Shown in pieces: positions 1 to 4,273 of a stretch of 4,273 nucleotides of DNA; within the stretch, counting starts at the first letter, position 1, and every line of letters starts with the position of its first letter. The translations under genes were made by a program, and so were the position numbers. This DNA comes from Qubevirus faecium: sequence record FJ539135.1; one strand, 5' to 3'. Below the pieces are notes generated by a model. It had not been told where the DNA came from and searched no databases. It worked only from the letters and a program-made list of their open reading frames with translations.

Positions 1-28
1 GGGGTAGGCCCCGTAAGGGGCCTGCCTT
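1..28 (+). promoter_or_regulatory. 5'-terminal stem-loop of the genomic RNA (likely replication cis-element); genome begins GGGG
   Basis: Seen in sequence: a6-c12 (AGGCCCC) pairs with g17-t23 (GGGGCCU), closed by a GUAA (GNRA-type) tetraloop at 13-16. Extends by U5-G24 wobble, g4-c25, g3-c26 and possibly G-U pairs to nt 1-2/27-28. Levivirus plus strands characteristically start with a G-run folded in a stable hairpin. Confidence 0.6.
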
Positions 29-2434: not shown

Positions 2435-2454
2435 TAGCATGTCAAAGACAGCTA
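2435..2454 (+). promoter_or_regulatory. Translational operator hairpin (coat-protein binding site) enclosing the replicase start codon
   Basis: UAGCAUGUCAAAGACAGCUA folds as an 8-bp stem (2435-2438 with 2451-2454; 2440-2443 with 2447-2450), a single bulged A at 2439 and a 3-nt AAA loop at 2444-2446. This is the same architecture as the Qbeta operator (8-bp stem, bulged A, 3-nt loop). The AUG at 2439-2441 lies in the 5' arm. Confidence 0.8.
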
Positions 2455-4169
2455 GTCGCAGAAGAGAAATTACTCAGCTATTGGGTAAGGTCGACATCAA
2501 CTTCGAAGACGACATCCATATGTCTATTGCCAATGACCTCTGTGAGGCCTACGGCATCCCGATGCTTCGTGACGCTGAGGAGTGCATTAACACCGCATTC
2601 CCAAGCCTTGATCAGAGCGCAGACACGTTTCGTGTCGAGTACTTACGCGCCGAGATCCTATCGAAGTTTGACGGGCATCCTCTTGGTATTAATACCGAAG
2701 AAGCAGCATGGGAGAAATTCCTGGCTGCCGAGGAGGGTTGTAGACGTACGAACGAACGACTGTCACAAGCTAAGTACCATGATAATTCTATTTTATCGTG
2801 GGGTGAGCGCGTAATTCATACCGCTCGCCGAAAAATACTTAAGCTAATTGGCGAGTCCGTGCCGTTCGGGGATGTGGCGTTGCGTTGCCGTTTTTCCGGC
2901 GGTGCAACGACCTCGGTGAACCGTTTACACGGCCATCCGTCGTGGAAGCATGCCTGTCCGCAGGATGTTACCAAACGCGCACTCAAGTATCTGCAAGCCT
3001 TTAAACGGGCATGCGGTGACGTTGTAGATTTACGCGTCAACGAGGTGCGCACTTCAAATAAAGCAGTCACTGTTCCGAAGAATAGTAAGACTGATCGCTG
3101 TATCGCTATCGAACCCGGGTGGAATATGTTTTTTCAACTCGGTGTAGGTGCGGTGCTACGCGATAGGTTGCGCTTATGGAAGATTGATCTTAATGACCAA
3201 TCGACCAATCAGCGTCTCGCGCGGGATGGGTCTCTGCTAAATCATTTAGCTACCATAGACTTATCCGCAGCCAGTGATTCGATAAGCTTAAAGCTAGTTG
3301 AATTGCTGCTCCCTCCTGAATGGTACGACCTTTTAACGGATCTCCGATCCGATCAAGGCGTTTTACCTGATGGACGAGTTGTGACCTATGAGAAAATATC
3401 CTCCATGGGAAATGGCTACACTTTCGAGCTTGAGTCGCTTATTTTCGCGGCGCTCGCAAGAAGTGTGTGCGAGTTACTAGAAATCGACCAATCTACTGTT
3501 AGCGTGTACGGGGATGATATAATCATCGACACTCGTGCCGCAGCTCCATTAATGGATGTCTTCGAATACGTTGGGTTTACGCCTAACAAGAAGAAAACGT
3601 TCTGCGATGGACCCTTCCGCGAATCGTGCGGTAAGCACTGGTTCCAAGGGGTAGATGTAACGCCCTTTTACATACGCCGACCAATTCGTTGCCTTGCTGA
3701 TATGATACTCGTTTTGAATAGTATCTACAGATGGGGCACTGTTGATGGCGTGTGGGATCCTAGAGCACTGACCGTATACGAAAAGTATCTCAAATTGCTG
3801 CCAAGAAATTGGCGACGCAACCGGATACCGGACGGCTACGGAGACGGAGCTCTCGTCGGATTGGCTACGACGAACCCGTTCGTTATAGTTAAGAATTATT
3901 CAAGACTATACCCGGTATTAGTTGAAGTCCAGAGGGACGTCAAGCGCAGCGAGGTAGGTAGTTATCTGTACTCCCTACTCCGCAATCGCGAGACACGTTA
4001 CAGTCCTTTCCTGCGTGACGCAGATAGGACTGGTTTTGATGAAGCGCCGCTAGCTACTAGCCTTCGTCGCAAGACAGGTCGGTACAAAGTAGCGTGGATT
4101 CAGGACAGTGCCTTCATCCGGCCCCCGTATTTCATTACGGGCATTCCCGAGGTGAAGCTTGCAAGCTAG
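2439..4169 (+). CDS. rep: RNA-dependent RNA polymerase (replicase beta subunit), 576 aa
   Basis: ORF 2439..4169, stop TAG at 4167-4169. N-terminus MSKTAS as in Qbeta replicase. Conserved blocks include CRFSGGATT, NKAVTVPKNSKTDRCIAIEPGWNMFFQLG, LATIDLSAASDSISL, VTYEKISSMGNGYTFELESLIFA, the catalytic YGDDII at 3507-3524 (GDD at 3510-3518), FRESCGKH, VDVTPFYIR and IPDGYGDGALVG. Confidence 0.95.
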   Translation: MSKTASRRREITQLLGKVDINFEDDIHMSIANDLCEAYGIPMLRDAEECINTAFPSLDQSADTFRVEYLRAEILSKFDGHPLGINTEEAAWEKFLAAEEGCRRTNERLSQAKYHDNSILSWGERVIHTARRKILKLIGESVPFGDVALRCRFSGGATTSVNRLHGHPSWKHACPQDVTKRALKYLQAFKRACGDVVDLRVNEVRTSNKAVTVPKNSKTDRCIAIEPGWNMFFQLGVGAVLRDRLRLWKIDLNDQSTNQRLARDGSLLNHLATIDLSAASDSISLKLVELLLPPEWYDLLTDLRSDQGVLPDGRVVTYEKISSMGNGYTFELESLIFAALARSVCELLEIDQSTVSVYGDDIIIDTRAAAPLMDVFEYVGFTPNKKKTFCDGPFRESCGKHWFQGVDVTPFYIRRPIRCLADMILVLNSIYRWGTVDGVWDPRALTVYEKYLKLLPRNWRRNRIPDGYGDGALVGLATTNPFVIVKNYSRLYPVLVEVQRDVKRSEVGSYLYSLLRNRETRYSPFLRDADRTGFDEAPLATSLRRKTGRYKVAWIQDSAFIRPPYFITGIPEVKLAS

Positions 4170-4189
4170 ACACTAGCTTGTGATGGGAA

Positions 4190-4208
4190 GGGCGGTCTTT
4201 GACCGCCC
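4190..4208 (+). other. 3'-UTR stem-loop 1 (8-bp GC-rich stem, UUU loop)
   Basis: GGGCGGUC (4190-4197) pairs with GACCGCCC (4201-4208) around loop UUU at 4198-4200. Located 21 nt after the replicase stop. Confidence 0.6.
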
Positions 4209-4228
4209 GAGAGGAGAAAGAAAGAAAA
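4209..4228 (+). other. 20-nt uninterrupted polypurine, A-rich linker in the 3' UTR (candidate host-factor binding site)
   Basis: GAGAGGAGAAAGAAAGAAAA is purine-only and sits between the two 3' hairpins. Confidence 0.5.
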
Positions 4229-4239
4229 CTCCCCTCAGT

Positions 4240-4267
4240 GAGGGTGGGCTCTGCTTTGCCCACTCTC
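4240..4267 (+). other. 3'-terminal stem-loop 2 (about 10 bp, 8-nt loop), followed by a single-stranded CUCCCA tail
   Basis: 4240-4249 (GAGGGUGGGC) pairs with 4258-4267 (GCCCACUCUC) with one G-U wobble; loop at 4250-4257. The genome ends ...CUCCUCCCA-3', the characteristic levivirus CCCA terminus. Confidence 0.6.
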
Positions 4268-4273
4268 CTCCCA

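Follow-up and report, generated by a model that had tools for sequence, protein, structure and literature searches.

The window, by which is meant the whole stretch of 4273 nucleotides analysed here, is a full-length genome of a known species, Qubevirus faecium, an E. coli RNA phage of the SP/FI type in genogroup IV of Allolevivirus, a placement that follows from its gene order and from Megablast identities that put it at strain-level distance from deposited records. In a Megablast search of annotated phage genomes, FJ539134 (Enterobacteria phage FI strain BR1, Qubevirus faecium, 4273 nt) aligns with the window over its entire length, with no gaps, at 95.1% identity, followed by phage SP at ~91% and NL95 and the HB strains at ~80%, with only patchy similarity to Qbeta. 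The open reading frames match the annotation of FJ539134 base for base, and reproduce the Allolevivirus/Qubevirus organisation of A2, coat with a read-through A1, and replicase in a genome of ~4.2-4.3 kb. The genes and the terminal features discussed below are as follows.

1-28, plus strand: 5'-terminal GC-rich hairpin of 12 bp (counting G1.U28) with a GUAA loop, starting with GGGG
52-1404, ORF: maturation protein A2
1424-1822, ORF: coat gene with a UGA stop, whose read-through extends to 2419 and yields A1
2439-4169, ORF: replicase
3060-3066, plus strand: AAAGCAG, candidate 5' partner in a pseudoknot with the U1 loop (Watson-Crick complement of CUGCUUU), within replicase codons K208-A209-V210
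4184-4188, plus strand: UGGGA, predicted 5' arm of the long-distance interaction ld IX and partner of the terminal UCCCA, from folds and invariant in 12/12 genomes
4190-4208, plus strand: first hairpin of the 3' domain, 8 bp with a UUU loop, from MFE folding, with three pairs that change on both sides across relatives
4209-4236, plus strand: hairpin with a 12-nt A-rich loop AAAGAAAGAAAA (4217-4228), from MFE folding, matching the published hairpin V
4240-4267, plus strand: 3'-terminal hairpin U1, 10-bp stem and 8-nt loop UCUGCUUU (4250-4257), from folding, conservation and covariation
4266-4273, plus strand: allolevivirus 3'-terminal signature UCCUCCCA, invariant in 12/12 genomes
4269-4273, plus strand: UCCCA, predicted 3' arm of ld IX, from folds and invariant in 12/12 genomes
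4272 and 4273, plus strand: C4272, putative first templating base, and A4273, putative non-templating A added by the replicase (roles by analogy, PMC4200798)

Conservation was assessed across 12 full-length Qubevirus genomes, comprising the window and BR1, SP, HB-P22, HB-P24, NL95, Qbeta, TW18, VK, BZ1, MX1 and M11.

Genome ends and the 5'-terminal hairpin

That the window boundaries are true genome ends had been proposed from the letters alone, and comparison with other records bears this out, since terminal matches stop exactly at the record ends in every full-length record and FJ539134 aligns from first base to last. In sensitive BLAST searches, the last 104 nt match 23 records, the match reaching the final base in all of the full-length ones, and the first 60 nt of the window line up from the first base of BR1, HB-P22 and HB-P24 and from the second base of NL95, which carries an additional G. 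The first 60 nt are 95-100% identical to those of BR1, HB-P22, NL95 and HB-P24, and identity to the window in the 3' UTR is 100% for BR1, 95-96% for SP, and ~86% for NL95 and the HB strains.

The terminal bases also agree with what is known of initiation in this phage group. Both strands of Qbeta RNA carry 5'-GG and CCA-3', with synthesis starting with GTP opposite the penultimate C, and with the 3' A left uncopied and added by the replicase (PMC4200798). The GGGG at bases 1-4 of the window and its CCCA end fit this rule, so that initiation opposite the penultimate C and an untemplated terminal A, both suggested previously for the window, may be assumed by analogy (PMC4200798). Moreover, the Allolevivirus 3' signature is TCCTCCCA (PMC6071253), and positions 4266-4273 of the window, which also has the G start at its 5' end, read TCCTCCCA; the leviviruses differ in carrying the tail signature ACCACCCA (PMC3499819), as opposed to the allolevivirus UCCUCCCA. 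The 5' end expected of virion RNA is accordingly GGGGUAGG, and the 3' end ...CUCCCA. A panhandle between the GGGG of the 5' end and the CCC of the 3' end is absent from the full-genome MFE fold, where the 5' hairpin and ld IX are kept instead.

Metagenomic sequences added little to this picture. The DNA pattern CTGCTT N7-11 TCCTCCCA gave at least 120 matches in IMG/VR, all of which are chance occurrences inside large DNA-phage contigs. A replicase-based search of IMG/VR yielded 80 distant levivirus contigs (39-50% identity), 7 of which end in CCC or CCA; none of the 80 presents a clear complete terminus, and hence no covariation was added from this source.

The pattern of differences between the window and BR1 is relevant to how the terminal bases were obtained. 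All 211 differences between the two genomes are in coding sequence (163 at third codon positions), with 0 differences in the 193 non-coding nt of the two UTRs and two intergenic spacers, a distribution with P ~6e-5 under a uniform rate. Such a distribution, together with the 100% identity of both termini to BR1, would be seen if the terminal bases had been taken from primers or from a reference instead of being determined independently, in which case the biology of the group would be unaffected and the ends would say little about this particular isolate. However, the same trend is seen against SP, where the 3' UTR is 95-96% identical as compared to 91% overall, and this greater conservation of non-coding over coding sequence is what selection on RNA structure would give. 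Furthermore, both intergenic regions, which hold no primer sites for the finishing of ends, are equally unchanged, and the length of the window is exactly that of BR1. The absence of non-coding differences thus suggests that these RNA elements are under strong constraint, and ends derived from a reference or from primers are the less likely explanation, and on balance an unlikely one.

A GC-rich hairpin capped by GUAA at positions 1-28 is apparent in the sequence (GGGGUAGGCCCC/GUAA/GGGGCCUGCCUU) and is confirmed by folding. The 28-mer alone folds at -24.5 kcal/mol (z = -4.2; 0 of 200 shuffles as stable), with bases 2-27 paired in the MFE structure and the G1.U28 pair optional, and is the most stable of 4246 28-nt windows genome-wide. 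Between the two terminal hairpins in order of stability comes a separate hairpin of the type GGCGCUCUGG-UUUC-CAGAGCGCC, at positions 114-141 near the start of the A2 gene, which at -20.8 kcal/mol takes second place among the 28-nt folds.

A stable 5' hairpin is considered important for replication in ssRNA phages (PMC3561173), and one is predicted in 11 of the 12 Qubevirus genomes, the exception being the old SP record. The 5' hairpin aligns more poorly than U1, with 80.8% of cells paired and double changes at three pairs. The loop, described in the sequence-only reading as a GNRA loop, does fit this class in the window, where C12-GUAA-G17 includes the closing pair, but the loop type varies among relatives. 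GUAA is found only in the window, BR1 and HB-P22, with AUAA in NL95, AUAAA in HB-P24, UUUA or CUUA in the Qbeta group, and GUA(G) in MX1/M11. Because the loop sequence differs between genomes, GNRA cannot be counted as conserved; the conserved element of the extreme 5' end is a very stable hairpin that starts with G.

In the case of SP, the first 19 nt diverge from those of the window and the hairpin is not formed. The SP records (X07489, positions 1-30) begin with GGGGGUAGGGGGGAUAAAGGGGGCC, as compared to GGGGUAGGCCCC-loop-GGGGCC in all other group IV genomes, and this version folds at -16.1 kcal/mol with a large open loop. The divergence looks like an old sequencing compression error that has been carried into later SP records.

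Three of the pairs in the 5' hairpin are wobbles (G1.U28, G2.U27 and U5.G24), each of which becomes a mismatch in the complement. For this reason the corresponding 3' hairpin of the minus strand is weaker, at -17.8 kcal/mol, than its plus-strand counterpart at -24.5 kcal/mol. The asymmetry is a property of the group IV genomes and is absent in Qbeta (-17.6 versus -17.7 kcal/mol).

Hairpin U1 and predicted pairing of the 3' tail

At the 3' end, a 10-bp hairpin at 4240-4267 followed by CUCCCA at 4268-4273 had been read directly from the sequence, and folding confirms the hairpin. The element is composed of GAGGGUGGGC/UCUGCUUU/GCCCACUCUC with one G.U among its 10 bp. The 3' 34-mer alone forms exactly this hairpin (-19.8 kcal/mol, z = -4.06, 0 of 200 shuffles as stable), which is the third most stable distinct site among the 4246 28-nt windows. 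The structure is also insensitive to context, as all 10 pairs are present in the MFE folds of the last 150, 300, 600, 1000, 1500 and 2200 nt and of the full 4273 nt, and an ensemble calculation on the last 1500 nt gives every pair a probability of at least 0.99 and leaves the loop unpaired with a probability of 1.0. The earlier proposal had left the terminal structures to be sought in MFE and covariation models, and in these U1 appears in all folds with a covarying stem, and the 5' hairpin retains 11 of its 12 pairs in the full-genome MFE.

The window hairpin is the known hairpin U1, which has a remarkably conserved loop, with UGCUU in MS2, SP and AP205 (PMC3561173); the window likewise has a 3'-terminal hairpin whose conserved loop contains UGCUU. 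A 3'-terminal hairpin with the loop UCUGCUUU and the tail UCCUCCCA is present in 12/12 Qubevirus genomes, with loop and tail invariant. In the 3' UTR alignment of these genomes, 94.5% of cells in the U1 stem are paired, with six pairs that never vary and compensatory changes at two pairs (GU/AU/UA and UA/AU). The structure clearly outscores versions in which the partners are slid by 1-3 columns in the same alignment, and an RNAalifold consensus recovers it independently.

The state of the tail is a different matter. The CUCCCA tail had been described as single-stranded, and this is true only of the isolated 34-mer, as the tail is paired in every fold of 104 nt or longer. When longer sequences are folded, the region 4184-4273 is predicted to form a domain of three hairpins (4190-4208, 4209-4236 and 4240-4267) that is closed by a 5-bp helix between the terminal UCCCA and a UGGGA that sits 15 nt past the replicase stop. 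The middle hairpin corresponds to hairpin V, whose large loop is described as rich in adenines for MS2, Qbeta, SP and AP205 (PMC3561173), and the closing helix corresponds to ld IX, a long-distance interaction at the very 3' terminus of all Leviviridae (PMC3561173). The UGGGA/UCCCA helix is found in 6 of the 8 longer MFE folds (104, 150, 300, 1000, 1500 and 4273 nt), that of the full genome among them, whereas the folds of 600 and 2200 nt pair the tail elsewhere. The GGG/CCC pairs of the helix have probabilities of 0.85-0.86 in the 1500-nt context and 0.93-0.97 in the 300-nt and 1000-nt contexts, and the bases C4270-4272 have a probability of only 0.05-0.10 of being unpaired in the 1500-nt ensemble. 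The same holds for the relatives, as ld IX is predicted in 12/12 genomes folded singly (GGG/CCC probabilities of 0.63-1.0; CCC unpaired at no more than 0.09 in 1000-nt contexts) and by RNAalifold on the 12-genome alignment.

Since the longer folds and the 12 relatives all pair the tail, the single-stranded CUCCCA can be regarded as an artefact that arises when the final 34 nt are folded in isolation. These results bear on a simple model in which a terminal hairpin carries a permanently free CUCCCA tail that the replicase would bind as it stands, without prior unmasking. The isolated 34-mer does adopt such a structure, at a frequency of 0.98, and the replicase needs a free 3' end when it initiates (PMC4200798). 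Nevertheless, the tail is always paired once at least 104 nt of context are included, the CCC is predicted to be almost entirely paired in the window and in its relatives, ld IX is described for the Leviviridae as a whole (PMC3561173), and Hfq is reported to melt structure in the phage RNA (PMC9032327). As a resting state, a permanently free tail is therefore contradicted by the predicted folds, and is quite improbable as a description of the genome end. Instead, ld IX is predicted to close the 3' domain of the window, such that the initiating CCC would be base-paired and hidden at rest. This prediction draws on conservation, thermodynamics and the published Qbeta model, and not on covariation, because both arms of ld IX are invariant in all 12 genomes.

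Two other sequences have the potential to pair with this region. An 11-nt run, UGGGAUCCUAG, at positions 3753-3763 (codons W-D-P-R) is invariant in 12/12 Qubevirus replicase genes, and it contains the UGGGA to which the tail UCCCA pairs instead in the 600-nt MFE fold. Separately, the 5' arm of the A-rich hairpin contains GAGGAGA (4211-4217), a perfect complement to UCUCCUC at 4264-4270, which spans the base of U1 and part of the tail. This alternative pairing would compete with both U1 and ld IX, is found in none of the computed MFE structures, and has no counterpart in the Qbeta group.

The predicted fold is also informative with regard to the possibility that the 3' end is a tRNA-like structure, or 'genomic tag', whose CCA end is recognised through EF-Tu in the manner of a tRNA. 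The genome does have a CCA end, and EF-Tu and EF-Ts are part of the replicase holoenzyme (PMC4200798). The 3' domain, however, is predicted to consist of three simple hairpins and a 5-bp helix, with no cloverleaf or mimic of an acceptor arm. In addition, ARAGORN found 0 tRNA-like or tmRNA-like elements, and an Rfam scan of the whole window at E values up to 1 matched no family, the tRNA and viral tRNA-like families being among those searched. A tRNA-like 3' end was rejected on the basis of the two empty searches, and is exceedingly improbable. The empty Rfam scan also indicates that the terminal elements have no curated Rfam model.

The U1 loop and a candidate long-range pseudoknot

The sequence-only reading made no proposal for the function of the U1 loop, and a candidate is provided by a pseudoknot partner at 3060-3066. 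In Qbeta, the U1 loop forms a pseudoknot with a partner ~1200 nt upstream that is essential for replication, and it is in Qbeta only that the pseudoknot has been verified (PMC3561173); interactions over such distances bring the 3' domain close to the active site (PMC4176380). In the window, the loop CUGCUUU is complementary to AAAGCAG in the replicase gene, which occurs as a sole copy on the plus strand, 1190 nt upstream of the U1 loop, and ~110 nt downstream of the M region, to which the replicase binds (2629-2956 in the SP annotation, mapped to 2626-2953 of the window). AAAGCAG is found at the homologous site in 12/12 genomes, those of group IV having it 1190 nt upstream and those of the Qbeta group 1220-1221 nt upstream.

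The sequence around this site is unusually well conserved at the nucleotide level. AAAGCAG is contained in an 11-nt invariant run, AAUAAAGCAGU (3057-3067), which is tied for the second-longest invariant run in the replicase gene. The conservation is confounded by the fact that AAAGCAG codes for the conserved residues N-K-A-V. None of the three codons N207, K208 and A209 varies, as compared to genome-wide rates of invariance at conserved residues of 29% for two-fold and 12% for four-fold codons. This is suggestive of a constraint at the level of the RNA, in what was a post hoc test on related sequences.

The 7-bp CUGCUUU/AAAGCAG duplex has a predicted energy of -7.8 kcal/mol. In the predicted ensemble, the partner site is partly accessible, with 3056-3060 open, 3061-3063 unpaired at ~0.55-0.63, and 3064-3066 paired with a probability near 1. 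Both sides of the proposed pseudoknot are invariant in the 12 genomes and for that reason show no covariation, and no experiments on SP-type phages were found in the literature consulted. The pairing between the U1 loop and 3060-3066 is best viewed as a candidate pseudoknot, based on conservation, thermodynamics and analogy to the Qbeta experiments.

The loop sequence and its complements also occur elsewhere. A second exact copy of UCUGCUUU lies at 1682-1689 in the coat gene, within a small hairpin (AUCUGC-UUUC-GCAGAU). This copy is present only in the window, BR1 and SP, and its confinement to this clade suggests that it is probably a chance occurrence. In GA (position 2200) and PP7 (position 2321), a 5-nt complement of the terminal-hairpin loop is found 1246 and 1249 nt upstream, respectively, near the Qbeta/SP spacing. 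As five-mers recur several times per genome by chance, these matches are only a hint of a wider pseudoknot geometry.

A further question is whether U1 might serve mainly in packaging, as a binding site for the maturation protein, and not in replication. Such a site is reported for the 3' end of MS2, where cryo-EM has revealed contacts between the maturation protein and 3'-terminal RNA. Possible binding of the maturation protein at hairpin V has also been noted in MS2 (PMC3561173). In a model of the full Qbeta genome, however, the maturation protein sits on stem-loop 59 of 77 and not on the final one (PMC10610835), and the invariant part of U1 is a loop with an upstream complement, which fits a replication pseudoknot. 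A mainly packaging role for U1 in Qubevirus is thus unlikely.

Replication signals in Qubevirus and related phages

The window and Qbeta (Qubevirus durum) share the tail UCCUCCCA, the U1 loop UCUGCUUU and the ld IX arms UGGGA/UCCCA, all of which are identical, as well as AAAGCAG at homologous replicase codons, at 1190 nt upstream in the window and 1221 nt in Qbeta. The two differ in several respects. The U1 stem has GGGUGGGC/GCCCACUC in the window and AGGGGG/CCCUCU in Qbeta, with compensatory changes; the middle hairpin loop is AGAAAGAAAGAAAA-like in the window and AAUAAAUUA in Qbeta; Qbeta has one short extra helix in its 3' UTR (PMC3561173); and the closing helix predicted for Qbeta is longer, with only the terminal A free. 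The Qbeta 3' domain, with U1, ld IX and the pseudoknot, is that of Beekwilder 1995 and Klovins & van Duin 1999, as summarised in PMC3561173.

Within genogroup IV, SP, BR1, NL95, HB-P22 and HB-P24 have the same three-hairpin 3' domain as the window. The comparison with Qbeta and SP that had been called for thus finds the 3' tail, the U1 loop and ld IX common to both, with the SP record lacking the hairpin at its 5' end. More distantly, MS2, GA, PP7, AP205 and PRR1 have a stable 5' hairpin that starts with GG, and a 3'-terminal hairpin with a loop of the (U)GCU/(U)GCUU type, so that the terminal architecture can be considered a family standard. MS2, GA, PP7 and PRR1 end in CCA and the AP205 record ends in ...CCCGGC, with C-rich ends that are partly paired upstream in all five. 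MS2, GA and distant ssRNA phages differ in having more hairpins in the 3' UTR, up to seven in the case of MS2.

Taken together, the results make it highly probable that the window is the entire plus-strand genome of an allolevivirus of genogroup IV, and that its ends are the standard replication signals of the group in a model that includes ld IX and the pseudoknot. The window supplies the structures, their stability, conservation and covariation, the position of the true ends, and the presence of a pseudoknot partner; the Qbeta literature supplies the Hfq step, recruitment through S1 and the M-site, initiation with GTP, the addition of A, and the role of the 5' hairpin. By analogy with Qbeta, the holoenzyme, composed of the beta subunit, EF-Tu, EF-Ts and S1, would bind the internal M-site via S1. 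U1 would serve as a highly stable support presenting the invariant loop UCUGCUUU, of which seven bases may pair with AAAGCAG at 3060-3066, and this pseudoknot, with other long-range contacts, would bring the 3' domain to the active site of the replicase, as in Qbeta.

The CCCA would then have to be exposed to the replicase, and in the Qbeta scheme it is Hfq that would melt the RNA structure at the 3' end. Hfq prefers A-rich RNA, and from this preference and footprinting data Hfq probably docks on the A-rich loop at 4217-4228, a candidate site next to U1. Melting of phage RNA structure by Hfq for the replicase has been reported (PMC9032327; PMC6071253), and plus-strand replication of Qbeta is both Hfq- and S1-dependent (PMC6071253). 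As in Qbeta, synthesis may start de novo with GTP opposite C4272, with A4273 stacked on the first base pair and left uncopied. Copying of the 5' GGGG would give the minus strand a 3' CCCC to which an untemplated A may be added, thereby creating the same start signal on both strands. The 5' hairpin probably folds once it has been made, keeping product and template apart; cooperation of both ends has been suggested for genuine templates of the Qbeta replicase (PMC6847885).

It is also conceivable that genogroup IV phages possess features of end control that are absent from Qbeta, namely the weaker 3' hairpin of the minus strand and the GAGGAGA/UCUCCUC pairing as a switch, neither of which is conserved in the Qbeta group. 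If the former were of consequence, the minus-strand 3' hairpin, being ~7 kcal/mol weaker, would make an intrinsically more open template. If the latter were, the GAGGAGA conformer would unzip the base of U1 and re-pair the tail, and could represent a group-specific switch for exposing the 3' end. Such group-specific control is very doubtful.

The terminal hairpins and the CCCA tail of the window are real, but they are already known, textbook replication signals of the alloleviviruses. The earlier interpretation is partly supported. It is corrected on two points, as the tail is predicted to be paired by ld IX and the GNRA loop is replaced by other loops in most relatives, and is extended by the candidate pseudoknot partner at 3060-3066. 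The window is confirmed as the complete and correctly bounded genome of an SP/FI-type RNA coliphage, which has little import beyond annotation; the 5' hairpin, U1, ld IX, the pseudoknot partner and the CCCA start site can all be annotated by homology with Qbeta. The useful correction concerns the initiating CCC, which is predicted to be base-paired at rest, an arrangement that fits the reported need of this phage group for Hfq.
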